Below are positions 1,167 to 61,756 of a stretch of 64,000 bases of DNA, in pieces. The stretch comes from Cetorhinus maximus (Eukaryota). The number at the start of each line of letters is the position of its first letter. Position 1 is the stretch's first letter. Location: positions 37,200,001-37,264,000 of the forward strand of contig NC_135888.1 in NCBI RefSeq assembly GCF_964194155.1, read 5' to 3'. Position numbers and translations under genes: made by a program. The notes beneath the pieces were generated by a model. That model did not search any database. It had not been told where the DNA came from and saw only the letters and a program-made list of their open reading frames with translations.

Positions 1167-2184
1167 TAGAGAATGAAGGAACTCTGTGATACCTGCCCAC
1201 GACATTCTCGCAGCAATGACAAGAACCGTCAAGGTGCAGGCATCAATAATGTGTCTAGGGAGTGTGAGATCCTGGACTAAGAGACCTGCCTTTATCTTGC
1301 ACAGAGAGCTTTCACATCTGAGTGACACAAACACTGTTCATCAGAACAAGGAGCCATAGGCAGTAAAACATTCTTGGGAGTTTATTTTAATTCTCCACGG
1401 CAAATGGGCATGAGCAGATCAAAATATATAATGAACGTGTGATTTGCTATCGCCCTATTTCTGCTGCAGGATACGTGAAAATCAGCCCTAGGACTACTTA
1501 CAGAAATTGGTGCCAACACTGCACTTCAGAATTACTTCATTGGCTAAAAAGCAATTTGGGACATCCAGAGTTTTTGAAAGGCACAATATAAATGCTAGTA
1601 TTTTTCTGACTCTGCACCAGCCTCAAAATGACATAAGTTGTTTCATAAAACTTTTATGGGCAAGTTATGTGATGCCAGTATTTGTACATCTGCCATTTTT
1701 ATGGAGGCTTCAAGTCATTCAAAACAAATATCTATATAAATATAAATACTTGCCTTTGCAAATCAATCAAGATAAGAGCCGAACTGTGTTGTATGAGCAA
1801 CCATTCACATCCCTGCGCCAGGTAATACTTAATGGTTGGAAGAACAGGCAACAAGTGTAAAGTTGTGTCCACAACTTTCCAATACTGCCTATTTAGACCA
1901 CCCCCTCACCCCCAACATTGCACCACCTCTCACTGACCTTCCCCCTCCTCCACTCAAGTGAGAATATTCTTATGGTGGTCAAAGGCATTTCGTGGAAATT
2001 TTAACATTTTATCATAAAATGGCGCCCTCTGATTACTTTGAGATTCTCTTCTTTAATAGTTGGTAGATCTTTATGTTATGTTGAAGAAAGCCAGATGGTG
2101 AAGGATAAAACCAGAACCAATCTTTACTCAGTTTAAAATTTATTTACAGAGTGAAACATTACAAGCACACATTGCCTATCTCAT

Positions 2185-5100
2185 CTGCAGCACAATTTCT
2201 AGTGAAAGACCATTTCCAACCGAAACCCTCGGTAACAATGCAGCATTTTAAATTCAATTTGAGATGCCATGCCCCTGGAAAGACAGTCGCTTGCTATGTA
2301 GCATCCTTAAAACAACTGGCAGAGCACTGTGAGTTTGGGACATCGATTAATGACATGTTAAGATGGCGATCAGTGTGTGGGATTAATGAAGATACCATTC
2401 AAAAAAGGCTGCTGCCTGAGACAAATTTGGATTTCAGCAAGGTGCTGGAGTTGACGCTCACAATGAAAAATACAGCCAGGGGTTCAGAAGAAATCAAGGG
2501 AGCACAAAATGGAGCCAGCTGGAAATGGTGCAAAAATGCAGGGCTTCATGGAAAGGTGGGAAACAGACCAGCAAAAAGCAATGGCTTAAAGTATAAAAAC
2601 CACATTCATAATAGCAGAAGTAGAACCAGACAGCTTACAAACGAATGACAATTTAAAAGAACTAAGTGCTTCCATTGTCATCGCAATGGGCACGTTATGC
2701 AATATTGCAGAGAAGGACTGAGGCCAAAGTTCAAACAAAAAGGCAAAAGCCGTGACATTTATATAATGGGTGAGCCAGAAGAACCAGTCAGATTTTTGCT
2801 CCCTGCACAATTTAAAAATGGGTCATACAGAGCCAATCTACTTGACAGTAAAAGTCAACAGGAAAACCTTTCAAATGGAGGTGGAGACAGGCACATCCAC
2901 AGCGGTCATAGGAGAACACACAATTAAGTATCTGAATGGAGGGGACCACTCACTAAAGCTGGAAAACTCAGGTGCCAGACTAAAGATGTATACTGGTGAA
3001 AACATGCAAATAAAAAGTATATGCAAGTTTCCAGTACAATATGGAAGCCAATCTACTAACCTAACCATGATAGTGGTAGTAGGGGAGGGTCCAATTCTAC
3101 TTGGTTGGAACTGGTTTAAGGAAATAAATTGGAGTGGACTGAGATTTTCCAACTCAGAATGAAAGATCTACAGGAATTATTACAGAAATATGCCCCTGTG
3201 TTCAGGGAAGAGCTCAGGAAGATTCAGGGGCTGCAAGCTAATATCCACGTGTACGCTGGAACAACCCCCAGATATTTGAAGGTGAGGCCGGTCCCCTGTG
3301 CATTATGAGAAAAAGTGGATATTGAATTGGACAGGCTGGAAAGGTTGGGAGTCTTACAACCTGTACAATTTCCCAAATGAGCAGTGCCCATAGTTCCAGT
3401 ACTAAAGCCTGACCAGAATGTGCGAATATGCGGGGACTGCAAGTTGACTGTTAACAAAGTGGACAGACTTGATAGGCATCCTATACCAAAAATTGATGAA
3501 TTGTACTCCAAGCTGGCAGGGGGGAATCGCATATATGAAACTCAACATGAGCCAGGCTTACCAGCAATGCGAGCTAGAAAAGGCCTCTCGGGATTTTGTG
3601 ACTATCAACACACATAGGGGCTTATACCAGGTTACCCTTCAGAGTCTCATTGGCTTGAGCCATTTTCCGATGGGCTATGGAAAATTTACTCCAAGGTCTA
3701 CCTCATGTGATGGTTTATCTCGATGATGCCCTAGTAACAGGACTAACTGATAAAGAACACCTGGCTAACATGGAAGAGGTATTGAAGCATTTCTCACAAG
3801 CCGGAGTACGCTTGAAAAGGAATAAATGTATCTTCCAGGCAAAAGAGTTGATTTACCTTGGTCATAGGGTCGACTCACTTCATCCGTAGAAGACAAGGTG
3901 AGAGCTATTCGTGAGGCGCCAGCCCCGAAAAATGCCACAGAACTCAAATCCTTCTTGGGAATGATTAACTACAATGGTCATTTTCTCCCAAATTTGTCGA
4001 CAGTACTGGCTCCTTTATACGGTTTACTCAAGAAAAACCACAGGTGGACTTGGCAACCCCACAACTGCTGCAAGACTTGCTCCCAGATGTGAGACAAAAC
4101 TGGATCATAGTTTGTCCATTCTCTGATGTGTTTGCATTCACTGGTGATGAGTCCAGAAAATTTAAAACAAGACAAGTTCTTGCGGGGTGGGGACATTCAC
4201 ATTGCTGTCCTTCAGGGGTAATTGGCTCAGCACGTCTGCATTAGCAATCTAGCTTCCTGGCTGTAGGGGCAGTACTCTCCCACCAGGTGGCGGATGGCTC
4301 CGAACAGCCCATTGGCTATGTTTTAAGAACACTCAGTGAGGCAGAACGAAGATACTCACAAATAGAAAAAGAAGGCTTATCATTCGTATATGGCCACGTT
4401 CACCACTTCACCATCATTTCCGATCATATCACTAGGCTTGTTTGGGGAAAGTAAGGCAATACCTCCAATCGCCTTGGCATGTAACCAAAGGTGGACACTG
4501 ATTCTAGCTGCTTACAAATATACTTTTATTCACTGGCCAGGAAGCCAGATTGCCAATGCTGATGCGCTGAACCAATTACCTCTAAAGGGCAGCAATGTGA
4601 ATGTCCCCATCCCTCAAGAACTTGTCTTGTTAGTAAATTTTCTGGGTTCATTACCAGTGAATTCCAAACACATCAGAGAATGGACAGACTGTGATCCAGT
4701 TTTGTCTCACATCAGGGAACAAATATTGTAGGGATGGTCTAACGAGCCAAAGTAGGACAAAACGAAGCCCTATTTTAACAGGAGATACAAGCTCACCTGC
4801 CAGGACGGCATCTTGCCGTGGAGAGCGAGAGTCATTGTGCCTCCCACAGGAGGACAACCATTATTCATAGCGCTGACTCCGGCATTTCCGGAATGAAAAT
4901 ATTGGCGTGTAGCTACTTATGGTGGCCAGGGATGGACAGTGAAATCATAACATGGTCAAGAGCTGCATGCAGTGCCAACAGGTGCCGAAATTGCCTCCTT
5001 CTCCTCCACTGCATCCTTGGGAATGGCAAGGAAGGGCATGAGCCCCATCCATGTTTACTATGTGGGGCCTTTTTTGGGCACAATGTTCCCCTTACTTATC

Positions 5101-6227
5101 GACACTCACTCCAAATGGATAGATGTATCCGAGGTGCGATCACCCACATCTGCCACCACCATAGACAGATTGTGGCACTACATGGTTTACCAGAGGTAAT
5201 CGTGTCTGATAATGGAACAGCATTCACCAGCGGGGAATTCCAAAAATTTACAACTCTCAATGGCATCACACATGTCGAGACCTCGCCATACCACCGTCCA
5301 TCCAATGGGTTAGCCAAGAGGGTGGTTCAGATCTTCAAGGCTGGAATGAAAAAACTAGATGTGGACTGTATAACAAGTTATCACATTTCCTGCTCAGCCA
5401 GAGAACTACGCCACATACGACCACTGGTATTGCCCACACAGAGTTATTAATGAAGAGATACTTCAGGACACGGTTAAGCCTCATAAGGCTAAATTTAAAG
5501 GGGAGGGTAGAGAAAAGTCAGGAGGCCCAGAAGAATGAACACGATTACCATAGTCGTGAAAGAAACTTCACTGTGCAGGAAGATTTTCTCGTGAAGAACT
5601 TTGGAGATGGGCCCAAATGGCTATCAGGTGAAGTCAGTGCAGTGACAGGACCCCTGTCTACCATGCATTGGCTGAAGGTCAGATAATCAGGAGACATATA
5701 GATCACCTCAGGTAACGGGAAACAGATCCACAAGAAAAGGTGCGCCAAGCATTCCTATTAGAGTCTACACCATAGACTGAAGGAACTCCTCTTGCTTTGG
5801 AAGCACCTGTAGAACACATTGAGCCTGAGAGAGTCGAAGAGGCAAACTTACAGGTTCCTACCGGGGAGCCCAATGGACAGATATCTCCTGAGACAAAGGC
5901 CTCAGAAAAACCATCAAGAGTTGTAGAACCACAACAGTCGACACATTTGAAAAAGCCTTTTGAGAGACTAAATTTGCATATAATTCATTTTTGTAAATAA
6001 CTAATATATTGTCAAATGTACTTTCAAGCAAAGGGGGAGGGATGTGGTAATCTGAGGTGTAATACACCTTTAGGAGACTGTGAGCAGATTGACCACATGA
6101 CTGTAAGACCCAATAGCTGTGTAGCGAGGGCTACCATGTTAATGTTAGCCAAGAGTAGGGTCTGGTTGGAGAAGCACACATCATGTTAATGCTCTGTTGT
6201 TGGTGTAAATAAATAGTATGTGCTTCA
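2185..6227 (+). mobile_element. Decayed Gypsy (Mag/K02A2.6-like) LTR retrotransposon: partial gag, PR, RT, RNase H, IN, PPT and 3' LTR; 5' LTR missing
   Basis: Gag with CCHC knuckle (CFHCHRNGHVMQYC ~2667-2708); protease MEVETG..ILLGWNW; RT PIVPVLKPD..RICGDCK and VYLDD (~3712); RNase H; integrase IVSDNGTAFTS..PYHRPSNGLA; PPT AAAGGGGGAGGGA 6030-6042, then TG-starting LTR at 6043 with AATAAA. Many stops and frameshifts. Confidence 0.92.
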
Positions 6228-43640: not shown

Positions 43641-44570
43641 TTAGAATTGTCTGCCTCTCCTAGGGCTGTGGGAGTGCGTGACAGATGGGATACAGCGTGG
43701 TGAGATGTGTATCATGATGCTCTGGCCCTCATGGTGTGGGGCAGGCTTGATACATAATTCATCTTTTACGTCCCATCAGTTTTGTATGTTCAGTGATGCA
43801 GCTGAGCATGTTCAGCATGTCATGATTCGAACTGGGATCTTTGCTGCATTCTGAGCTCCCTCAATCTGGCTCCAAGCCTTTCCTCTATGACCCTCAGCGC
43901 ATTATGTGCCTCGCTCTCTGGTTACATCATTACATCATTCTACTTCACCATCCCTTCTCTCTAATTCACCTGTTATTATGACTTAATTCGCTGTGCAGAT
44001 ATACATCTTCAGGCTTGGTTGCTAACAGTGGAGTGTATCTGACCTAGAAGTGCTGGATGCCAATAACGTTGTATAAAAAGCTAAGTCTTCCACTTGGCTT
44101 CTGCTCCCCAACGCTAACAACCTTGGCCTCTTTACAAGAAGCATCAAGTTCCAGCTGCCATTAATAGAGTTGGTGAGTAATGAGGTGTTGCAGTCATCTA
44201 TAGAGATGAACAATTGCCCGATCAGCAGTTACAGAGCTAAGAATGGGCCGAAGTATCAATTAATGTATTTCTAAAATGCCATATTACTGTTCCTTTAAAT
44301 GACAATACCGTTCTTATTCATGAAACAAAATAGGTTCATACATCATTAAATCAGAGAGGCAATCAATACCAGGAAACAAGGTTTGTTCTTAACAGGGATA
44401 GATTTGCCCAAGGCTGAGTTTGGAGGTGCCACAGCTAGAGAGAATGCAATTCTCATACATGTATTTGTACTGACATCAAATCCAGATCATGCAACCCCCA
44501 AATCTTGTCCAAAGCAAGGTCGAAGATTTTGGGCAGAATTGTCTGGGCCGGCTGGCATTGTGCGTGATCA

Positions 44571-44868
44571 ATGGTGAGAGCAGACAATGTGGCGAGAGCG
44601 GACAATGTGGCGAGAGCAGACAATATGGCGGGAGCAGACAATATGGCGAGGGGGACAATATGGCGAGAGCAGACATGGCGAGAGCAGACAATGTGGCGAG
44701 AGAAACAATGTGGCGAGAGCAGACAATATGGCGAGAGCAGACAATATGGCAAGAGCAGACAATATGACAAGGGGTACAATATGGCGAGAGCAGACAATAT
44801 GCCGAGGGGGACAATATGGCGAGAGCAGATAATATGGCAAGAGTGGACAATATGGCGAGAAGGACAAC
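44571..44868 (+). repeat. 18-bp tandem repeat (GGCGAGAGCAGACAATAT, ~16-17 copies) in the Harbinger subterminal region
   Basis: Direct reading; gives the ARADNM / WREQTI / GESRQY periodic ORFs. Confidence 0.95.
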
Positions 44869-45918
44869 AATTGGTTTCATGATGTTGTGAAACCAGGTTG
44901 AGATCGTCCGCTCAGCCTGTCGATCGTGGGCCGTATTTCCTGCCATCGGACATGGGGAACCTCATTCTAATACATCAGCATATCATTATAAGGCTAGCCC
45001 ACTGGACTCACCCCCATCCCCGCTCCCCCCTCGACTGGATCGTCCACCCATATCAGCGTGCAATTGCACCGACGTGGTTCACAACGGCATATATAAGGTG
45101 TGCACTTGACAGGCAGCACATTGAGGGAAACTCAGAGGTGAGTGCACAATAACGTTGCAGAGCGCTCATGGGGAGCACCTATTGGACTTCATGGTTGAGG
45201 CGCATTGCGGGGGGTCGGGGGGAAGGCTGCCCTGTGACTGAAGGTGGTGCACATGCACGTGCCAGGGTGGGGAGGGGGGGGCAGGATGTTTCAGGGGAGC
45301 ATCCACGCATTAGGGACACCTTGTATAATGTGACCATTCCTCTGCAGCTGAGACAGGTCAGGTGCAGTCACATTGATATTACTGGAGTCGGAACTCTAGG
45401 TTATCTGCCCACTCAAGCAACGCAGATGCATGAAAGTGCCACCAAATGCTCCAGAGCTTTTTACCCCTCGGGCACAGACTGCAAAGTAATGAGCATTTTA
45501 GTGGACTGCAGAACAGTTGGACCACTGGGCACATTGTACAATCTCCTTGCTAAAGCTGGCTGTGCAGCTGTCACTGCTGGAGGTGCTCACAGCCCCTTGC
45601 AATGTCATCATTCCGGTTTGGACCAGACTCCCTCATGGTTCAAGCTAATAGTGCAGCCTTGCAGTTCAGGATGGGAGAATGCCTGTGCCTGAACTGAGAG
45701 CACAGCATGCAGTCCATTGGGCAAAGCTGCCACCAATCGGTCAGGTGGACTGGGGCGGAAGTGGGTGGGGTTTCGAACAGCCATGCAGCACACTAATCTC
45801 TGGCCATCCAAGTGGTGGCCAGCACTCTCCGGGATGCGTTAAGGGGCCTTCAGACTTAAACAAGAGAGGTTCTGACTACACTCATGCTAACCTCTCTTTC
45901 ATCCTGCAGGAGGAGTAC

Positions 45919-47126
45919 ATGAGGGTCATGGAGCCTGGTGACCTAGCTGTATGCCTCATGGTGTACAGAGAGTGAAGACGACAGAGAAGAGAGAGACTGA
46001 AGCTGACTGTGCAGAGGGAGGAGCAACATCCTCAGGAAGAAGGGGTGGCTGAGGCTCTGGCACATGCTGCTGAAGAGTCATAGCGAGCTATCGCTGGTTG
46101 GTGCCTAGCAAGATTCAGGGTCTATGGATTCCTGCAGATGACCAAGAACCAGTGTCGCCAAAGACGTGACTAGGGAACTAGTCAGGTCACATCTGCCAGC
46201 TACTGCAGATTTGGCGCCACGGGGACATGGAGGGCATCTACTGCCAGTGGCTGTGAAAGTGACTGTGGAGCTCAATTTCTACATCAGTGGCTCCTTTCAG
46301 GGCTCCACAAGTGACCTCTGTGGGATATCAAAAGCATCCACACACAAATGCATCCATGATGTCACGGATGCCATCTTTGTGAGGGCACACAACTTTGTGC
46401 ATTTCGCCTGGGGCCAGGAGAGCCAGGAAGCAAAAACGATTGGATTTTCCCAGATCTTGGGTTTCCCATAGCTGCAGGGTGCCATCGACTGCACTCATGT
46501 GACACTCAGATCTCTGAGGCAACAACCGGTCAACTATGTCAACTGCGAGGGATTCCATTGGCAGAATGTGCGTCCACCACAAATGAATCCTGCAGGTGCG
46601 TGCATGGTTTCCAGGGAGTGTGCACGACTCCTACATTCTCAGTCGGTCTCAGATCCCTGACATCTTCGAGGGTCCACAGAAGCTGCAGGGACGATTCCTT
46701 GGGCACAAGGGCTACCCGCAGAGGGCGTGGCTGATGACACCGTGTAGCGGCCTCAGAACGAGGCTCGTGCTGCAACTTGCAGCTTGCTGGAGCAGACCAT
46801 CGGGATGCTGAAGATGAGGTTCCGGTGCCTGGACTGGTCTGGTGGAGCTCTGCAATACAGTCCGCAGAGTGTGTCACGCATCGTTGTTGCCTGCTACGCC
46901 CTTTACAACCTCGTGTGCAATGGGAAGAGGAGCTGGCTAAGGAATAGATGAAGGAGCTGCACATCTCCTCCAATGAGGAGGACATCGGCAGTGATGAAGG
47001 TGAGGAGGTCCTCGAAGGTGATGATGAGATGAAGATGAGGCCCTCGCACTGGCCAGACGAGGCAGGCATGCTCAGGAGTTCCTCATAGCTGCTAGATTTG
47101 TGAAGGATGATTATGACATGCAGTGA
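45919..47126 (+). pseudogene. Harbinger DDE transposase (HARBI1-like), disrupted
   Basis: LPVAVKVTVELNFYISGSFQ..GFP*LQGAIDCTHV..FPGSVHDSYIL..GHKGYP..EQTIGMLKMRFRCLD; splice acceptor CTTTCATCCTGCAG at 45909. Confidence 0.9.
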
Positions 47127-47847
47127 GGAGACACCATAAGATCCTCACATTGCATTTATGAACGTTTGACTCCGGTCTGGCTTATGGAAGTGCACATACC
47201 CTCTGTGATAATGCTCCTGTCATGGAGGCACAGTGAAGCATAGTAGTCGCTCCATTGCAGGAGAATGATGATGACATGCAGTGAGGACACTCCATCGATC
47301 TTCACATTGTCTTTGAGAATGTCTGACTCCTGTCTGACCAAGGGCAGCTCACTTGTGCTCTGTGGTAAGGGTCATATCATAGAGACACAACCATGAAACT
47401 TTAGAAACATCTGATCCTTTGTCCATCTTCAGCTCCTGATCCCGAATATTTATTTGGGACTCTGCGAGCATTTGGATTTGGGACATATTCTGTTGCCCGG
47501 ATCTGACTTTAGTATGCTGCCACAGGCTGAAGAGATGGGGACAAGCCCCACCTTAAAGGTGCTGAGAGCGCACCAAGAGAGAATGAGGGAACTCTGTGAT
47601 GCCTGCCCACCACATTCTGACAGCAATGACAAGAACCGTTGAGGTGCAGGCATCAGTAACGTGTCCAGGGAGTATGAGGCCCTGGACTGAGACACCTGCC
47701 TTTATCTTGTGCAGAAAATTTTCACATCTGAGTGACAAGAACACTGCTCATCAGAACAAGGAGCCATAGGCAGGGAGACATTATTGGAAGTTTATTGACA
47801 ATAGTGAACATTATGTACAAGTGATTAACGCCCTTGGCCAGACTGTG

Positions 47848-50800
47848 CTTCTGTGCGGCAGGTGCCATGCACGGACCACCGTCTGATGTGGGCGGAGCTC
47901 GCTGCGTCCTGCGCTTGGATGGGGTCCACATACTGGTACTTTAACAAGCTGCTGCTGGAGGACAAGTGGTTCCTGGACTCGTTCCGTCGTTTCTGGGCCA
48001 GCTGGAGAAGGAAGCGGGGAGGCTTCCCCTCCTTGAGGCTATGGTGGGATGGGGGCAAGGTTCACATCCGCATCTTCTGTCAGGAGTACGTGAGGGGGTC
48101 GACAAAGAGTCGGAAATCTAGGGTCAAGGAATTGGGGAAGGAGGTGCTCAACCTGGAGGCACTTCTCCGTCACCCCAATGTGGACCCGGCCCCGTGGCCG
48201 GCGTACGATGAGAAGAAGGGCGCGCTGCGGGACCTGCAACTCGTCGAGTCCTGCGGTGCGTACGTGAGGTCACGGATCCGGTTCCTCAGAGACCTGGACC
48301 GTTGCTCCTCCTTCTTCTACTCGCTGGAAAAAAGGCACTGGGTCCGTCAGCAGCTCCTTATGCTGCTGGATCCCTCGTCTCGGATCTGGAGGGCATCAAG
48401 GCCATTGTCCGAGACTATTACTCTACCCTGTTCTCTCTGGATCCGTCCAGCGAGGATGCTTGCAGAGTTTTGTGGGAGGACCTGCCGCAGGTCGGCCCGG
48501 AGAGCACCGGAAAGCTTGACTCCCCTGTAAGTCTGGGGGAGCTGACCGGCGCCCTCGACAGTCTCTCCAGGGCAAATCCTGGGGGCTGGACGGGCTGACC
48601 GCAGAGTTCTTCAGGGAGTTACAGGACGTCCTGGGGGACGATTGCATGGGGGTCCTGGGGGAGAGTATCGTGACCGGGGAGATGCCCCTCTTGTGGCACA
48701 AGGCTGTGATTGCCCTGCTGCCAAAGTAGGGGGATATCCGCCTGTTTAAAAACTGGCGCCGGTCTCCCTCCTCAGCATGGGTAATAAAATCTTTGCCAGG
48801 GAAATGTCTTCTTGCCTTGGCACCGTGCTGGACCACATGGTCCACCCTGACCAGTCCTACGCCAACCCGAACCGCACCATCTACGACAACATCCATCTGG
48901 TCCGGGACGTGATCCACTTTTCCCAGAGGACTGATCTATCGAGCGCTTTCCTGTCTCTTGACCACAGGGTAGATCACGAATATTTATTTGGGACTCTGCG
49001 AGCATTTGGGTTTGGGACATATTCTGTTGACCGGATCTGACTTTAGTATGCTGCCGCAGAGTGCCTAGTTAAGGTTAATGGCTCTCTGATGGCACCTCTT
49101 CGCTTTGGGAGAGGAGTGCGTCAGGGCTGTCCCCTGTCTGGCCAATTGTATTCTATCTGCGTGGAGCCTTTCCTGCGCCTCTTGTGGAGGAGCTTGTTGG
49201 GATTGGTTCTGCGTGGGCCGGGCATCGGGGGATCTTCTCGACTTACACCAGATGACGTGCTCCTCATGTTCACCTGGAGAGGATGCGCGAGTGCCAGGAA
49301 GTCTATTCTGCCGCGCCCTCTGGCAGGATCAACTGGAACAGGTGCTCTGGACTCCTGGTCGGTCAGTGGCAGATGGATCCCCTACCTGAGGAACTCAGGC
49401 CTTTCAGCTGGAGCAGGACCAGCCTCCTCTACCTAGGGGTCCACCTCTGCCCTGCTGAGGAATCCTGGCTGGCGAACTGGCAGGAACTGAAGGCCAGAGT
49501 CACCACTCACCTGCAGCACTGGATGGGACTGCTCCGAGCGCTGTCTTACTGGGGTCGAGTGCTGGTCATAAACCAGCTAACTGCTGCCATGTTGTGGTAC
49601 CAGCTGGTCACTTTTTTGTCTCAAAAATCCAGAGAATGCTTGTCGATTTTGTCTGGGACAAAAGGCTGCACTGGGTCGCTGCTGAGGTTCAGAGTCTCCC
49701 GCTTAGGGAGGGCAGCCAGGCGCTGCTCTGTCTACGCACCCAGGTGGCGATATTCCACCTTCGGGCCCTGCAGCAATACCTTTACCTTGAGCCCCCACCG
49801 AGATGGTGTGCCCTGGCAACGTATTTCTTCCGCCAGGTGCACGGCCTGTATTGTGACGTGTAGCTCCTGTTTATAGACCTGAGGGGCCTTTGTGGCTCCT
49901 TGCAGGTGTTGCCCGTCTTTTACCAGGACCTGATCAAAGTATGGAAATGGTCACCTCATGATGTAGCTCTTGGCCGTCAGGAGTAGTGGATATCGTCAGA
50001 GAGCCGCTGCTCAGGAATCTGCCCCTCCTCCTTTTCAGTGGCTGGCAGAGAAGAGGGCTGACGGGGTGACCAGGATCAGGGATGTGCTGGGTGGCGGAGG
50101 AGTGGACTGGGTGATTCCACAAGAGTTGGCGCATCGCGCGTCCGTGGATTTCTGGCTCATGGCCAATGCCGTTTAAGATCTTAGGACAGTCATGCTCGGC
50201 CCTGACGCCATTCTGGGCCTCAAGGTGGCTCAGGTGCGTGGTGATCTTCCGTACGAGCATACGCCTGTTTGGAGGAAATTCCACATTGGCCCCAAGCCCC
50301 AAACCCTCCCTCAGGAGCCGGAACCCTGCAACCTGCGTCGCCTCGTAGAAAAGCCCTCTGTGCCCTTTAGCGCGGCGCAGGGGGGGTTTCCTGCATGGGC
50401 TGCTGCACATCCTTCACTTCCTTGCCCGACGCCCGCCACCTGGACATGCCCTGGTGTGCTGCCTTGTTGTCTTCCGGCGGCAGAGGTCTACACCCACCCC
50501 TCTACCGAGGCGTCCTCCTATTTTCCATCGGGGACCTGAGGTGGAAGGTGTTGCACGCAGCAGTCCCAGACAATCGTAGGATGTGTCAGTTCATGGACTC
50601 CCAAGGTGCCTGCGTTTTTTGCGGTCTTGTGGAGTTGGTGGACTATGCGCGTTGTAAGTTGTTGGCTGCACTCCCTTTTTAATTTCTTGAAAAACACCTT
50701 ACTGTTGTTTTGTTTGCACTTCAGCTCCACGCTCCTGATCTACAGGCACCCGTTGCGGAGGGGGGCCGGGAGGGAGGAGGACCTCCTCGTGAACCTGCTC

Positions 50801-51139
50801 CTGGGCCTGGCCCAGTTGGCTATTAACAAGTCCAGGCAGCGGGCGATAGAAGGGTCGTTCGAGCCGACTGTCTGCCCCTCTCCCGCAGCTCCGTTCGCGG
50901 CCGGGTGTCCCTGGAGAGGGAGCACGCGGTGTCTGCTGGCACCGTCAAGGCCTCCCATGCCCGGTGGGCGCCATGGGGACTGGGGGGGCTTTATAGACCC
51001 TTTTGACCACATTTTGGTCTGATGTTTGTAAATTTCCTTTGAATTTTGTCTTTTCTTTTTGCAGTTTCCCGATAAGGGACTGCCTTTTACCTTGTCCCTG
51101 ATTTTGTTAATTTAGTTTAATTGTTTTGACTCAAAAGAG
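47848..51139 (+). mobile_element. Tx1-clade (L1 group) LINE, 5'-truncated ORF2 plus T-rich 3' UTR
   Basis: Starts in the EN C-terminus (CTDH..W.FN..LL.D); W..GK..IR; PGG*DGLTAEFF; VHPDQSY..RTIYDN; GVRQGCPLSGQLY; YLGV; GRVLVINQL; C-terminal CVFCG; ends TCAAAAGAG. Confidence 0.92.
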
Positions 51140-52838
51140 TTACACCTTCTTAACTTCCCTAACCCTGCTGCTACATCTTGCTGCTCCCCTTACATCCACA
51201 GTGGAGGTGGAAGCAGCCTGTTGACGGCTGTGTCCTGTCTGTAATGACCTGAGCGAGCGACCTCTGGAGGGCCGAAACCTGTAGGGCCCCGGCCTGCTTT
51301 TGGGCTCCTGCTATGTGGCAGTGGCACATTCCTTGGCCTATGGAGCTGGAGCTGCTAGGATCACAGAAAGAGGAGATTCAAATGGGCCGGGCACTCCTCG
51401 AGTCACCTGGATGGATGGCCCCGAGGGATACACCTGCTGATCCTCCTCCCTATGAGTATCCGAGGGCCCCAGGCTGACTCCTTGAGGAGAAGGGGTAGCT
51501 GGAGTGAGATCAGGCTGCCCTGTACCCCTCTCGCATACACACAGGTGGAGGCCAATATGGTGTCAGCTATGGAGTTCAGCCCGCGCAGCAGTGCAAGACC
51601 AATGTCCTGAACCAAGGACTCCATGGCATCTGCCATCCTACCAGTGTTGACCTCGATGCATTGGCATGCCAGTGCTGTTACTTCAGACTGAAGGCGGACA
51701 GGCTCCTCCATCGTGCCTGGCAATCTGAGGAGTGCAGTGGACATCCCTTCCTGATGTTCCCAAGCTTGCCTTTGCAGCTCCAGCAACTGTGACATGATCG
51801 AGTCCAGAGGCTCATCATCTGACTCGGACTCAGCAAATTCCTGGCCTCCAGCAGTCCTCCGAGTGCCAGACACCTGGGAAGTCCCTGCCAATGCTTGCTG
51901 TGGGTCTGTAAGTGTGATGTGATCACCACATTGTGATCTCGAGGCTACTTTAAAGCTAGGTCCCCTGAGATGTGTGTGTCTCTGCTCTGGTAGAGGGTGT
52001 GGGTGAGCGCTGTGATGGGACTTCAAGGAAGGTGCCTTCAGATTCCGCTTTGGAGGTTTCTTCGGTGCTTGATTGGAGGCCCTGAGTTGTGGACTCTGTC
52101 GGCTGTTTGGCAGCTGTGCCTGTGAAAGCAAGGGGAGATAATTAGTGCATGGCAGTGACCTGTGAAACAGGACACATCACTCACAGCATGGTTGGTGATG
52201 GGTGTTAAACTGCTGGATCCTCAATTGGTAGAGCACCACCGACCTCACCGTCAGCACAGGACTGGTCCAGATTCTCACCGCCCAGCTGGATGGCTCTGTT
52301 TTCAAAGTTCTTGAGAACATTGATTTCAGGCATCCTTCCACCAGTCTGCGACCTCTCCCTTTTGTTGTGTGCCAGCTTGTCCTGCATAAATAGACATGGA
52401 GAGAATGTAAGCAGGATGCCTGCCAGGCCAGATGATAAGTGTGCCAGGCATATGCGGGTGCTGAATGGTCCAATGGACAGGATGAGGACAATGAGGGTGT
52501 GTGTGAGAGAATGAATGGTGATGTCCCTGGGACCGGCAGTGAGTGAGGGTCCTGTGTACGTGTGATGGGTTTGTGAGTGTGTGAGTTGAGAATGATAAGA
52601 AGAGTGAATTACCCTGGCAGAATGGAGATCATTCATCTTCTTGTGGCACTGGGTGGCTGTCCTCTTTTGCTGGGCATTGGCACTGACCACCACTGCCACT
52701 GCCTCCCAAGTTGGATTAGTGACGTTGCTGCCCAGCCTGCAGCCAAAGCGAGGGTAGAGGACATCACGGCGAGCCTCCACAGCTTTCAAAAGGCTCTCAA
52801 GGACTGGGGGTTGTAGCCTTTTTGCCTTTCAGGGCCAT
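51140..52838 (-). pseudogene. Harbinger Myb/SANT DNA-binding protein gene, three exons (52838-52613, 52381-52185, 52119-~51140), disrupted
   Basis: AVEARRDVLYP..WEAVAVVVSANAQQKRTATQCHKKMNDL (Myb/SANT-like); canonical GT/AG at 52612, 52382, 52184 and 52120; exon 2 DKLAHNKRERSQTGG. Confidence 0.85.
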
Positions 52839-54790: not shown

Positions 54791-55050
54791 CTGTTTTAAA
54801 CATGGATGTTATACGTGGTGGGCACAGTATTCAAAATGTATTCATTTAACACTGGTTACAGGAGATGCTTGTATCACTGGTCTCCTGTACCACTAGCAAC
54901 ATAAATATAAACTGGATGGATGTGCTAACATCGACTGCCAAAAAGGCCTAATTTTAAAAAATCGGATCTCAGCGTGTCTGGTAAGCTTACATTAAGGTTG
55001 CTACAAGCTGTACAAAGACTCAAGTGTCAGAAGCCAGCAGTGTAAGTAGC

Positions 55051-58000
55051 TGTAATAATTGTAAATTAAACCTTTCCTTACTGTTATGGGGATCATATGA
55101 TTGTACAGACAAGCCAGCCCCAAGTGTGGGGAATCCTAAGGACAGAGTATTTTAGCCTTGGTTTTGGAACAAGGATGCAGCCTCACCAGGAGTCTGTAAA
55201 TAAAGTTTACTGTTCCTCACAAGTAACCAACCCTGCATTCCAAGTTTATTATAATTGGCGACGAAGATGAGTAAAGCCGACGCAGCACTTCACCTCGCAA
55301 CTGTGAGTGTTTTGATTATTAATGGAAGAAGGAAAAGAAGTATACTCACCACCAATGCCTCTCTTTGGCAGAACTGACCCGTATGACTCATCTGTCGAGG
55401 ACTGGAGTCAGCACACAGAGTGACTAGGTTTCTACTTTGTGGTTAACAAAATTAAATTAAGGCAGAGCAGAAACAGAAGGCAATTCTCCGAAGTGTCAGC
55501 AAGAGCAAAACGTAGAACCTAATTCATAGTTTGATGGCTTCAAAATTGCAAAATTCCAGATCCTTCCTCAAGCTAGTAGACCTCATGAATGGACAGTTTC
55601 AGCATAAAACCTCGGTGATCTTGCAAAGGTTCAAGTGTTTATTCTCAAGTATGGGCCTCCGGTGAGCTGATCGCAACGTATGTCGCAAAGTTAAAACAGT
55701 CAACAGAGCACTGTGACTTCAGTGATACTCTAAACGACATGTTATGAGATCGTTTGGTTTGCAGCATAAACGCTGACACCATTCAGCGCCATTTGCTTGC
55801 ACAAGTTGAGGGAGACCTGAAGCCCGCAATGGAGTTAGCGCTAGCAATGAAGAGTGCTGGGAGGGACTCTCAAGCTTTGTAGAGTGTGCAACATGGCGCC
55901 GTTCTGCAGTTAGGGTGGGGACCTGCCACTGGGCATGGCGCAAAGACCAAGGAGGCTATCGTGAAGCGGGACACGGTCCCTACTGCTAGATAAACAAAAA
56001 AGAAATACTGGAAGCAGCTCACCAGTAATCCAGAAGTTAAAGTGCTAGCATTGTGGTGGAAACCATGAACCTGAAGTCTGCAGATTTAAAGAGGCAGAAT
56101 GCCACTACTGTCACAAAAAAGTGCATGTTGGTAAACAGCGCAAGACTAGATCAAGACAGCCATCAGACAGCAGGTCAAATTGAATAAAGTGCACAATATA
56201 GAAGAACTAGAAGCTGCTGATACTAATGCCTATTCCCTATAAAATCTCAAGGCCAGGAAAACTAACCCAATCACTGTTACTCTTCAAGTAAATAGAAAAC
56301 CTCTGGTCATGGAGGTTGACACAGAAGCATTGACCACAGTGGTGGGAGAATACATCTGTAAGTACCTCAGAGAAGGTGCTCAGCCATTGAGTTTGGAGAA
56401 AACCGCTGCTCAGTTAAAAATATACAGGAGAAGCAATACAGGTGAAAGGCATCACCTCTGTACCTGTATCATACAGACAACAGACAGTCCAGCTGCCAAT
56501 AATTGTTGTAACAGGAGAAGGACCTAGCCTTCTGGGCCGTGATTGGCCAAAAAAAATCAAACTAAACTGGTCAGAAATTTTTCAGGTCAGGACGAGAAGA
56601 AATCCGAAGTTGACAAGAGAATATGATGGTGTCTTGTGGAATGAGATAGAAGAACCAAAGGACCTTCACAGGAAACAAGGATTCCTCAGGTCAGAGTTGG
56701 TTCCACAGGAAAATCATGAAAAGAACCTAAATGAATGCAGTGCCACTCTGAAGCAACTGAAGAAAGAGTTGGGAGAAAAAAGCCAACAATGTTCAATGTT
56801 CCAAAAGGAAGCCAAAAGATACAAAAAAAGAGACAGAAGAACTGAAGAATGAGTTGATGGAGACAAAAGATGCATTAGAAGGAAAAGTCATGGAACTTTC
56901 CAAGATGCAAATGGGTAACTCAACCCCTGAACTGATCCAAGTTAAGATTTCACCAGAGAGAAATTTGTCCGGCTGTGAAATCAGAATGAAGGATGAGACA
57001 AAACTCTGTGGCAAACATAACAAGGAAAAAACAGAAATCAAAGCTGAAAGGCCAGTAGGATATGCATCCAGAACCCTTACTGTAGCTGAGAAAGGATACT
57101 CATAAATTGAAAAAGAGGGCTTATCTATTGGATTTGGAGTAAAGAAGTTCCATCAATATTTACACTGTTGACACTTAGCCATAGCATCAGATCGCAAACC
57201 ACTGTTAGGATGGCTTAGTGAAGAAAAGGCAACTCCAACAATAGCCTCTGCTAGAATTCAAAGATAGGCTTTAATTTTGTTGGCATACAAGTACACTTAT
57301 ATGCATCATTCAGGTGTGCAAATTGCAAATGCAGATGCCCTCACTTGTCCCCCTTTGCCCGATAGTATTACACATGTTCCAGTACCTCAAGAGGTAGTAC
57401 TAGTGTTGAATTTCCTGGATTCCTCACCAGTCTGTGTGACACAGGTAAAGAATTGGACAAATCGGGATCTGATTTTAGCAAGAGTCTGTGATCAGGTATT
57501 GCAAGGATGGTCAAATGCACAAGTCTCTGGAAAAGTAAAGCCATTCTTTGCCCGTGGATCTGAACTGAGCTGGTAAGATGGTATCTTGTTATGGGCAGCA
57601 AGAGTCGTTATCCCCTTGCAAGGAAGAGAACCAATATTGGAAGAACTTCATAGTGCACATCCTGGTATTTTGAAAATGAAGATGCTCGCACAAAGTTATA
57701 TCTCGTGCCCAGGTATAGATAGTGATATAGAAAAAATGGTGAAGCACTGTCTCCAGTGCCACCAACAACAGAAGTTGCATGTTTCAGCTCCACTGCATCT
57801 GTGGGAGTGGCCTGGTCGACCCTGGGTTCGACTACATGTGGACTATGTAGGTCCATTTCGAGGTACCACTTTTCTTGTGATCATCATCGCACATTCAAAG
57901 TGGATGGATGTGGTTGAAGTGAGATCACCTACATTGTGTGCAGCCATTGAAAAACTGTGTGAGAGTTTCAATGTTCATGGTCTACCTGACATTATTGTGT

Positions 58001-59038
58001 CAGATAATGGTACTGCTATCACTAGTACTGAATTCCAAAGACTTGTGAATTTAAATGGGATTAAACACGTCAGAACAGCACCATATCATCCCCCGTCCAA
58101 TGGGTTAGCAGAAAGAGCAGTACAAACCTTTAAAACAGGCATGAACAAATTATCAGAAGGAACGTTAGAAACACAAATTTCAAGGTTTCTGTGCAGCTAT
58201 CACACAACTCCTCATGTGACCACTGGTTCAACACCTTCTGAATTGCTAATGAAGCACTGATTTCGTACAAGATTGAGTTTAGTATTCCCTAATTTAGAGG
58301 GGAAGGTAGAAAAAAACCAGATTAGTCAGAAAGTGAATCATGACGTTCACAGTAGAGGTTGAGATTTTGCTGTGGGAGAGTCAGTTTTTGCATGAAATCT
58401 TGCAACTGGACTGAAAGGGGTCCCTGGTACAGTCATCTCTGAAACAGGACCTTTATCTTATCAGGTCGAAGTGGAAAACAGGATTGTTTGGAAACACGTG
58501 GATCATCTCAGAAGTCAAGAAACCCTCCAACAACCAGTTAATCCACCTGAATTTGAAGTCAAACCTTCGACCCCTGAGGTGCTAAATCGACAAAGAATAG
58601 ACATACCTGTTGTCTCTGTTGAAGTAAATAATTCTGAACTGCCATTGTTTAAGGACGTCCCTGATGCTGCAGTTCCTGGTCAAGTCGATCCAATGGAAGA
58701 ACCTCCAGTTGTAGAGCTGCATCGCTCTACCCGAATCCAAAAACCTCCTCAAAGACTAAATTTATAATTGCATGAACTGTATATAATATGGGTTAAGATA
58801 TTTTTGTAAATAAGAGGGTAAAATAAAGTTAAAGGGGGGGAATGTAGTAATTGTAAGTTAAAACTTTTCTTACTGTTATGAGGATCATGTGACTGTACAG
58901 ACGAATCAGCCCTAAGTGCGGGGAATCTTAGCAGTGGAGTTTTTTAGTCTTGGTACAATCATGTAGCTTCACCAGGAGTCTGTAAATAAAGTTTACTGTT
59001 TCTCCAGTAAACCAGCCCTGCATTCCAAATTTATTAGA
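55051..59038 (+). mobile_element. Complete Gypsy (Mag-like) provirus lacking RT: LTR-PBS-gag-PR-[coiled-coil insert]-RNase H C-half-IN-PPT-LTR
   Basis: TSD GTAGC (55046-50, 59039-43); LTRs 55051-55253 and 58843-59038; PBS TGGCGACGAAGATG (tRNA-Ser(GCU)-type); PPT AAAGGGGGGGAA; gag with CHYCHKKVHVGKQR knuckle; PR MEVDT..SLLGRDW; IN with HHCC and D..D..E (VDY, VSDNG, NGLAERAVQT). Confidence 0.95.
56660..57040 (+). other. Non-pol insert replacing RT; encodes a coiled-coil resembling UACA/ankycorbin-family proteins
   Basis: LRSELVPQENHEKNLNECSATLKQLKKELGEKSQQCSMFQKEAKRYKK(fs)ETEELKNELMETKDALEGKVMELSKMQ; heptad-rich, no RT motifs. The family assignment is from recollection, not a search. Confidence 0.6.
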
Positions 59039-61756
59039 GTAGCCTTCGAAGGCTAATGTAGAAGCAGTTACTGAAGTGTTCAAGTACAAAGAAAAGATCA
59101 TTTGAGTAAACAAATAATCTTTGCACAGGTCTTAAATAATTTAATTGGTCACTCTCAGGTCCAGTTCATCTTGTGAGGAAAGGATCTATGAAAAAAAATC
59201 TGCTCAATCTCAGGAAAATGAAAAAAAAGCTTGCATTTATAAAGTACTTTTTACAATTTCAAAAACTTGATCCCTACGTATTTTTGAAATGTACTCACTG
59301 TTGTAGAGAATGCGACAACCAATTTATGGGCCCCATCAACCGCAATGTGATGATGACCGGATAACCTTTTTCAATAGTGATATTGGTTGATGGATAAATA
59401 TTGGCATAGTCAAAATATAATAGAAAACAACAGGAAATATAGCAAAGTTCTGCAATATTCATCAATCTTACAGGATACATGGCTCAGCCTTGACTAACTA
59501 TCATATCTGACATATAACTTGCATGGTACTGCCCACAAAGATATTTGAAGACTTGCACTGAGGGTAAACCAATCCCAACAATTTTTTTTTGTCAGAAAAA
59601 GACGGTTCATATGTCTGTAGGGATCTTTGCCCCAGTTGGTGAGCAATAAGTTTTCAGACCTTTTTGGTTGTATAGCAAGGCTCATAAAAATCTTTTGCGA
59701 CAGGGTCAACGATGGTGTTGTAATATGGGTTCCTTAGATGTCTCAATGATGAGATCTTGAGACTCGTATATTTAAACATGATCTGTTTATTGCTAATCTT
59801 TAATTATTTACAGATCCTGGGTTACTGTCATGCATGGTGCTGTTTCTACATGCAGACTGGTTCCAGAGTGTTCTCTCGAGACTGTACTCTTGAGTGTATT
59901 ACCATATGACTCTATGCATCATGCCATGGGCAGTGCTATTCTCCAGTCCCACATTAACCCTTGCTCTGCCGAGCACTTATACATTACAATGGCATGTAGC
60001 CGCATCATACGACAGGTGGCACCAATTATTTTTTAAAGAATGATGAGAGTAGCACTTTCTCTAGCACACAGTTGCATCATAAAATCATGTTTACACTTAT
60101 TTTGACATCAGAGCATGATTAGATTTTTGGAAACAAGACAACATTTATGTACTTGCCACTGGCTTTCCAAAAAAAGCAAGTAAATACATTCTTGAAACAA
60201 ATGATGCCCACAAGGAATGAAAATGGCAAGAGTATCTCACCCCTTGTTAGACAGTAGCTTCATTTATTTACTTTTTGCATTGCTTCTTCCTGCAATCTTG
60301 CTGAAAGTTTGATCAAATCACCCGCTCAGGCAAAGCTTAAGCATTTGCATCCGACAAACCAAATTAAAAATAAAATAAATGTGGCCACAATTGTTTGCTT
60401 AAAAAAAAGCACAATAAGTAAAAAATTACAATATGAATGTAATATTAGACTAAATGCTAATGGAAATTTATTGAAAAGAACTGCTCCTTCTGATAAAGCA
60501 ACAATGGAAAATGGCAAGAGTGGAATGATTGACAAATGCAACAGCAAAATGTTGCATTTAAAGAGTTTCAATTTGCTGAGAACCGACCTTTCTTGATTTT
60601 TCCCCCTGAATAAAGTGGCCTTGCTCTGAAAAGCTCAACATATCTAATAACCTCTCTTTCCTTAGCTGATTGGTTATCTCTATTACAGTCTACATGAAGA
60701 ACAATTCACAAATTTTATTTTCATACCACATCAGCTCTCTAACCCTGATCACTGGCAGGTAAGTAACATTGGTTAATGTACCTATATCTGTGTATGTGCA
60801 TTCTCAGACCAAGGGAGTCAGTCAAGACCAACAATTCTTTTAGTATGTTGTATGAAATTGAAAACAAATAAACTTGTCTTTATTTCAGATTTTCCACATT
60901 ATCCTTTTTTCCATTGTTTATTACATATCATCAACAATACCATTATGTTTTCTAATTTTCTCATTTTCTAATAATTTTGTTTGTTTTCACAATTTGCAAG
61001 AACTAATAACTTTGCCTAAATAATGGCATCTTCTATGCTCTTGATTTCATGGATCATTAAAATTTGGCATTAATACAATGTAGCCTCAGTCCCAAACCAC
61101 AATGGGCATTCCTCATTGCACCGGATCGCACATTAAATCTTCTAATGTTGACCTTGGTCTGACACAGCTGAGCAGAAACATTCCAACCGGAATGCAGATT
61201 ATTCCTTCAAGTCAAGAGTGAAGGAATATTATACTCCATGATTTTGTTTGCTATTCAGATTTATATATTCAGGTTCAGATTAATCAGTGTGATTCTGACT
61301 TAATTTTAATTTTGCAACTTGTCTAAATGAGTGCAATTTTGACTATTTGCTTGGTGAATCATACCCCATGAATTTTGTCTACCGCAAGGTTATCGCCTAT
61401 CACTGAGGGTCCTCTTCGACACCTAGCAAAACCAATGCCCAAAGATAGGCTATGCTAAATTTGTGCATCCCAGTGCACCACAGTGCTGACGCTTTGGATG
61501 TATGTGGCTCTGAGCATGACCACCTCACCCCTCATTGCACGTTATTTAATATATGTAAAATTCAATTAAATTTTTAATAGTTTGGCATTCTTTATGTATG
61601 AGTATTGTCAATGACAGTTGGTTCATCTTTCCAAAACCAATTGTTCACCAAAATTGATGAATGCTTCAAACAAAGGCCAATGTGGGAAGACAAAATAGGA
61701 AAGATTAATCATTCCAAGCAATTAATTTTGGACAAAGTGTTACAGAATTTGAGTAT

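Follow-up and report, generated by a model that had tools for sequence, protein, structure and literature searches.

At positions 55051-59038 of a 64,000-nucleotide stretch of Cetorhinus maximus DNA (the window; C10:37200001-37264000 of the 4.0-Gb shark assembly G000) lies a Ty3/Gypsy long terminal repeat (LTR) retrotransposon in which ~1,030 nt of reverse transcriptase (RT) and RNase H (RH) sequence have been exchanged for a cassette of ~385 nt, two-thirds of which originate from the host gene UACA. We consider it very probable that a cargo drawn from two host genes, UACA and TPR, was handed serially among at least three Gypsy families, and that the family of the window element spread by co-packaging with an RT-bearing parent family. 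We refer to the RT-less family of the window element as B, to its RT-bearing parent as P, and to two further LTR families with the same host-derived sequence as U and V. Searches of the assembly for the three cargo families returned 2,552 (B), 11,856 (V) and 3,910 first-look candidates, which are not copy numbers; 40, 150 and 150 of these, respectively, were scored and every one matched. The U and V copies were chosen by protein similarity, and every copy that we examined was old and decayed.

The shark UACA gene lies on contig C27 and has multiple exons, one of them with 911 open codons. Window positions 56665-56849 match this big exon at 137 of 185 nt (74%, E-value = 6e-28), so that the first part of the cassette (56656-56849, forward strand) corresponds to approximately C27:11441536-11441353 on the minus strand of G000. 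The second part (56842-56920, forward strand) is joined to the first by a 9-nt microhomology and matches the same exon 450 nt further down, with 48 of 67 nt identical over 56842-56908. At the protein level, the 126-aa insert of a natural copy (P0001) had three matches among 1.84 billion proteins: two uncharacterized shark proteins and stingray UACA (43% over 68 aa, E-value = 2e-4), the only host gene of the three. A control comparison of the insert with the coiled-coil TPR locus gave nothing better than an E-value of 0.15, and the cassette contains no TPR sequence. These results bear out the original prediction that the insert is UACA-derived. Pfam returned only generic coiled-coil scores for the insert, and word-indexed homolog searches with the insert and with a linker segment of U found nothing, although these are weak negatives. 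When checked against host exons, the UACA piece was found to lie inside a single exon, crossing no exon junction, and therefore it cannot by itself show mRNA capture.

The remainder of the cassette is a tail (56920-57040, forward strand) that came from U and matches U and V copies. It has no match in the UACA gene region and none to TPR, and in local alignment with the downstream UACA exon it beat all 200 shuffles in only 1 of 8 copies. In the atlas search all matches to the tail were under 0.9, while a search of the shark's own genome gave 150 dispersed copy-like matches at loci that we did not inspect.

This chimeric structure is replicated. The 39 other scored B candidates match the insert at 87-90%, the 5′ cassette junction is kept in 38 of them and the 3′ junction in 37. 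Nine full-length B copies have different flanks and target-site duplications (TSDs) that agree at 5 of 5 positions in five copies, at 4 of 5 in three and at 3 of 5 in one, with LTR divergences of 11-17% (median 13.4%). Since the junctions are common to many copies with distinct flanks and TSDs, a rearrangement at the window locus does not explain them. Family B is thus a non-autonomous, replicated LTR family, RT-less and with many independent insertions, as had been proposed for the window element. Several near-identical pairs each lie on one contig (L045/L046, L053/L055, L056/L064, L037/L047 and L154/L155) and are probably segmental duplications.

The fullest form of the cargo is seen in U. 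The 29 U loci that we fetched contain as much as 1.55 kb of this exon of UACA at 75-87% identity, mostly with common end points. Their LTRs (250-310 nt) are unlike those of B, their primer site differs from B's and is presumably of the tRNA-Leu type, and 5-bp TSDs could be read by eye in three copies. In one copy the UACA part is in frame with an N-terminal stretch that had no Pfam match and that we take to be gag-like. Long U copies also carry TPR sequence 3′ of the UACA part (L104:5615-6336; L103, reverse complement, 5138-5644). A 166-aa stretch of it is 44% identical over 99% of its length to whale shark TPRb (E-value = 5e-22), and the piece scores above the Pfam cut-off for PF25481. The host TPR gene (C18:68549074-68629537) gave 36 exon matches. 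In 9 of 20 extended U copies, neighbouring TPR exons are fused although introns of 0.7-7.5 kb lie between them in the gene, and U must therefore have acquired this piece from spliced mRNA. The UACA and TPR parts are separated by a coiled-coil-like segment of ~90 codons (L109:4931-5212) whose source was not found and which may be a third captured gene. At least 150 places in the genome exceed the Pfam cut-off for Nucleoprot-TPR. Five TPR-like matches of 71.5 bits each share one 120-aa open frame (C24:952713, 3491975, 6344414 and 13467281; C1433:45463) and represent either recent duplicates or a younger family.

Family V (L150-L179, for instance C1:108238956-108242459) is a ~3-kb element encoding Gag, protease (PR) and a UACA coiled coil; its scored candidates match at 68-100% in amino acids and include the protein P0002. 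The gag and protease of V are 62-65% alike to those of B, and a longer form of the cassette follows the protease, after which come a basic tail, a stop and an integrase (IN) that is mostly deleted.

Deletions and trees point to the order in which the cargo moved. Four deletions in U are found in more than one copy (282, 102, 450 and 126 nt, in 2, 19, 18 and 3 copies) and all four are multiples of three, as are 3 of 7 single-copy deletions. The 450-nt gap in the window cassette is the U deletion carried by 18 of the 29 U copies, with the same 9-nt microhomology, and the non-UACA tail is also present in U. A 1-nt deletion in the tail is found in 27 of 27 B and V rows and is missing from 16 of 18 U rows, and a further 15-nt deletion, in frame within the UACA part, occurs only in B. 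When the 195-nt UACA piece common to these families was used to build a tree (100 rows), B formed one clade (100/100) and V another (100/99), with U paraphyletic and the host sequence falling within U. A tree of the contiguous cassette, built from 45 rows (15 of 40 B, 12 of 30 V and 18 of 29 U copies), places B and V together against the short U forms (99/94). From these sequence comparisons, the likely route is from the host to U, from U to an ancestor of V and B, and from there to B. The proposal that the B lineage captured UACA directly from the host does not agree with a cassette that bears the 450-nt deletion and tail of U and the 1-nt deletion of V.

We determined family reading frames from the commonest codon in each column of 36-39 other B copies. 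From gag through protease and the whole insert a stop is nowhere the commonest codon; the first is at 57056-57058, in 29 of 39 rows. The family frame is therefore Gag-PR-coiled coil-stop, and the cassette does continue the protease frame at its 5′ junction, as originally predicted. In both B and V the tail is read in a shifted frame, giving a basic, lysine-rich end. A second family frame, covering the RNase H remnant and integrase, is open from ~56997 to 58765 except at three sites where a stop is commonest (10 of 24, 11 of 33 and 11 of 21 rows), for which we suspect CpG decay.

The same prediction held that B had captured UACA mRNA itself and made one Gag-PR-coiled coil-IN polyprotein. In the window copy the frame does run from the insert tail into RNase H, at the junction the tail frame of U-type cassettes coincides with that of RNase H so that an early in-frame ancestor is possible, and integrase has a ratio of nonsynonymous to synonymous variants (N/S) of 0.43 among shared variants. 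However, the in-frame look of the window's 3′ junction is due to an extra base at ~57021-57024 that only 1 of 39 other copies has. Among 38 anchored copies, 32 are out of frame at this junction, 5 are in frame and 1 is in the third phase, so that the family consensus is not one open frame continuing into integrase. The 1-nt frame-shifting deletion is common to V and therefore predates the spread of B, and the integrase signal is common to B and P. Taken with the U-derived deletion and tail, this makes direct capture combined with a single polyprotein extremely improbable. The claim that the window copy is broken only by one extra A holds at most inside the insert, where the extra base near 56823 is in fact found in none of the 39 other copies; outside it, gag-PR and RH/IN contain stops and frameshifts.

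Ribosomes could also reach B integrase by a −1 frameshift where the two family frames overlap for ~60 nt, with the cassette serving as an open spacer that they must cross. The frames do overlap in a −1 arrangement with an A-rich stretch at ~56997-57056, and a spacer role would account for an insert that is open yet unconstrained. Nevertheless, a canonical in-phase slippery heptamer is present in only 2 of 38 copies, V retains an open cassette with most of its integrase deleted, and no integrase changes are specific to B, which leaves such frameshifting very unlikely.

The RT missing from B is present in family P. In one odd B copy (L013, = L042, L120) the cassette is followed by the front half of RNase H, at a different 3′ junction (L013:1890-2035), which may reflect recombination with P or an earlier state; L013/L042 served only to find the parent family. 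With its RNase H stretch we obtained 1,493 candidates, of which 40 were scored. Among 29 P loci, 28 have RT-region matches and none has the cassette. The LTR, gag, protease and integrase of P are ~77-88% identical to the window element, RVT_1 (73.8 bits) and RNase H exceed their Pfam cut-offs, and one copy (L139) has a PF13975 protease match below cut-off. Measured against this true parent, homology of the window element breaks at ~56655 and resumes at ~57040-57044, close to where it had been predicted from a more distant relative. Given their shared LTR, primer binding site (PBS) and backbone, P is the autonomous partner of B, and it is likely that B borrowed its RT in trans from this family, as had been suggested.

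B and P cannot be separated outside the cassette region. They are interleaved in trees of PR and of RH/IN (13 label changes against 14.9 when labels are shuffled), and a single B clade is rejected for RH/IN (approximately unbiased test, p-AU = 5e-8). Only 17 of 1,912 columns separate B from P; 16 of these lie in 56598-56652, within the protease-RT linker (56598-56655, forward strand) that derives from the parent lineage and diverged together with the cassette, and one lies at 57051, while 56000-56597 has none. Beyond ~60 nt around the cassette the B backbone is thus indistinguishable from that of P. A long separate stem, ~0.15-0.17 substitutions per site, leads to the cassette, and none leads to the backbone. 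Short similarities are seen at the joins, namely the 9 nt at the 450-nt deletion and, by eye, 2-4 nt at the outer junctions of B, where age has blurred them. The simplest reading would be that RT repeatedly switched templates from one to the other of B and P RNAs packaged together.

For tests of selection, four near-identical B pairs were reduced to one copy each and one V copy was removed. Uncorrected NG86 ratios that hinted at purifying selection on the insert were dropped, since a neutral control also gave 0.45-0.64, and for this reason we used counts of N and S variants with CpG sites excluded and transitions and transversions kept separate. Singleton variants have an N/S near 1 in all regions. 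Among variants shared between B copies, N/S is 0.41-0.54 in gag, PR, RH and IN, with off-frame controls of 1.7 for gag and 1.2 for IN; the two other phases of the insert give 0.62 and 1.27. Because B shares its backbone with P, we did not accept the purifying signal in its gag, PR and IN as proof that B was translated, and we read the RH/IN constraint in B as inherited from P. In place of the proposed dN/dS comparison, N/S among shared variants is below 1 in the backbone and about 1 in the insert, whose residues were probably little constrained. On the paths to B or V there are no fixed stops where ~3.9 were expected on each (P = 0.02 each), and it is likely that the captured frame was kept open. 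A protein function of the captured piece is possible.

Such a function might be Gag oligomerisation or, in U, delivery to the nuclear basket by way of the N-terminal part of TPR, with the captured coiled coils selected as protein modules. Two separate captures, both of long coiled coils in sense orientation and fused behind gag or gag-PR, speak for this, as do multi-copy deletions that stay in frame, paths to B and V without fixed stops, and retention of the cargo through transfers to backbones only 62-65% alike. Against it, missense constraint is not significant, the UACA piece was cut from 1.55 kb down to ~270 nt, and B and V lack TPR. TPR acts in mouse PIWI-interacting RNA (piRNA) silencing through residues 775-877, according to the part of PMC7618654 that deals with it, and this SPOCD1-bound part is not the captured one (~aa 90-440). 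On balance we regard selection for a functional module as doubtful. A bolder view is equally tentative: that a Gag-fused UACA and TPR module was traded between unrelated families as a selected assembly or nuclear-pore device, with the RT-less cassette behaving as a selfish allele that moved from one helper backbone to another and scattered host-gene fragments through the genome by the thousand.

Several observations weigh against serial hand-over with a frame kept open by selection. Missense constraint on the captured UACA piece is not significant, either pooled (N/S odds 0.78, p = 0.10) or on the B stem (N/S odds 0.51, p = 0.13), and shared variants in the insert give an N/S of 1.09. The two stop tests are not independent because the B and V paths partly overlap; stops are the most frequent codon at 2 of the 314 U columns; and the U and V samples are biased towards open frames because they were chosen by protein similarity. 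Even in the absence of selection, coiled-coil repeats are prone to in-frame deletion at microhomologies, backbones could also have been mixed by ectopic gene conversion among genomic copies, and the RH/IN frame of B, open bar three sites and with an N/S of 0.43-0.54, makes its translation possible. The branching order of U, V and B is also weakly resolved on 195 nt, which leaves more than one candidate for the direct donor of B's cassette. Some of these points would fit a cassette that was a neutral passenger, its frame open by chance and microhomology bias and its backbones mixed by gene conversion. The N/S of ~1 within the B insert and the A-rich repeats, which provide in-frame microhomology such as the 9 nt at the 450-nt deletion, agree with this. 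Fixed stops are nevertheless missing on the B and V paths, the four multi-copy deletions and the 15-nt deletion of B are all in frame, and the distinct TSDs indicate that B copies were made by integration, so that a purely neutral passenger seems to us an improbable account.

Under serial hand-over with P as helper, captures and transfers would have occurred by RT template switches in mixed particles. Repeated in-frame deletions did shorten the UACA part, and a short form does lie behind the protease in V and B, where the frame ends a few codons past the basic tail. Continued switching would then have exchanged the B backbone with those of P subfamilies while the cassette was retained. In this scheme B would spread co-packaged with P and be reverse-transcribed by its RT; because B would make Gag-PR-coiled coil and no integrase, integrase would also have to be supplied in trans. 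The captured frame would have stayed open because copies with premature stops in Gag-PR were selected against.

The window copy has the LTR pair, PBS, polypurine tract (PPT) and exact 5-bp TSD that had been reported, all typical of Ty3/Gypsy elements. The TSD (55046-55050, identical to 59039-59043) encloses a 5′ LTR (55051-55253) and a 3′ LTR (58843-59038), both on the forward strand like all the internal features, which differ at 32 of 196 aligned columns (16.3%). The PBS (55256-55273) fits the 3′ terminus of tRNA-Ser(GCT) genes in this assembly, with 13 of its first 14 bases agreeing when the CCA of the mature tRNA is included. Gag (55355-56230, approximate bounds) is decayed here but open in the family frame, and had no Pfam gag match for the related window open reading frame (ORF) examined; protease (56230-56597) continues in gag's frame across the family. 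After the cassette come the C-terminal half of RNase H and a spacer (57044-57576), which are colinear with the parent at 80-84%, carry traces of PF17917 and PF17919 and lie in the separate family frame, and an integrase (57577-58767) that is decayed in this copy, with PF17921 and PF00665 above their cut-offs. The PPT (58826-58842) is also present in the nine full-length copies. The pol order PR-RT-RH-IN is complete in P, and B keeps PR, the RH remnant and IN in that order. The Gypsy elements here may belong to the Mag clade. A single gag-pol frame agrees with the description of Mag in the relevant passage of PMC5408684.

The window copy is dead: read in the family frames, gag-PR and RH/IN contain 7 stops each, and five frameshifting indels are found from the gag start to the cassette. 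Contigs of a second organism cross its 3′ LTR-flank junction (64 letters of LTR and 362 of flank, with 25 differences) and also cross both cassette junctions. Because they span the LTR-flank junction, the insertion is likely older than the split of two species whose flanks are ~5-6% apart. Elsewhere in the window, a solo LTR on the minus strand (59716-60014), 680 nt from the element, is akin to U LTRs (67-90%, local matches) and has a 5-bp TSD that agrees at 4 of 5 positions. A second decayed Gypsy element (2109-6227, forward strand) has RT and is not the parent, its integrase being ~65% identical in nucleotides to that of the element; it seems to lack a 5′ LTR and contains an unrelated stretch at ~4060-4240. 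A GC-rich block (44400-52830) holds ORF pieces that presumably belong to non-LTR and Harbinger-type elements, with a weak Myb/SANT match at 52208-52828 (minus strand).

These families offer a datable vertebrate record of what follows mRNA capture: nested in-frame trimming, a two-gene fusion, hand-over between families and renewal of the backbone from a helper. The confinement of family-specific sites to ~60 nt of the cassette directly preserves, in fossil form, the recombination of a defective element with its helper. If it is true that the elements made use of TPR and UACA coiled coils, they would have had a novel means of targeting the nucleus or assembling particles. There is also a consequence for annotation, in that copies yield false 'uncharacterized' genes (P0002 and P0003). 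A shark 'calcium-activated chloride channel regulator 1-like' model (P0011) contains a stretch 67% identical to the TPR piece of U, probably an element absorbed into the gene model. In the literature we found nothing on UACA- or TPR-bearing LTR families or on the repeats of this genome, and an entry in Repbase or Dfam is possible. The mechanism itself, LTR-mediated mRNA capture, is known; we did not find its scale or the hand-over between families described there.

Acutely transforming retroviruses carry gag-onc fusions in which host coding sequence replaces pol in frame and which depend on a helper, and the N-terminal coiled coil of TPR is the partner in TPR-MET fusions. The shark elements differ from gag-onc retroviruses in that they have no env, captured no catalytic or signalling domain and show no sign of having benefited through the host cell, being germ-line retrotransposons that are now decayed. 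Another related process is LTR-mediated retroposition, for which the passages of Tan et al. 2016 (PMC5131818) on fly, mosquito, zebrafish, chicken and mouse describe mRNA capture by LTR template switching, multi-gene chimeras and non-autonomous products. There, too, host mRNA replaces internal ORFs with short microhomology at the junctions. However, the cases in those passages are young, few-copy retrocopies, whereas the shark cargo forms large families, has moved across backbones that differ in LTRs and primer sites and has kept its frame open over ~0.15 substitutions per site. Maize Bs1, treated in the same paper, is likewise a non-autonomous LTR element with pieces of several unlinked host genes, but it is a plant element, and the passage on it mentions neither cargo hand-over nor exchange of a parent backbone. 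Finally, the LTR retrotransposons of bdelloids, as described in the corresponding part of PMC5408684, resemble the shark families in having acquired ORFs common to different types of retroelement. Those ORFs are esterase-, exonuclease- or env-like and were added to autonomous elements, whereas the shark cargo takes the place of RT and can be traced to host source genes in the same genome.

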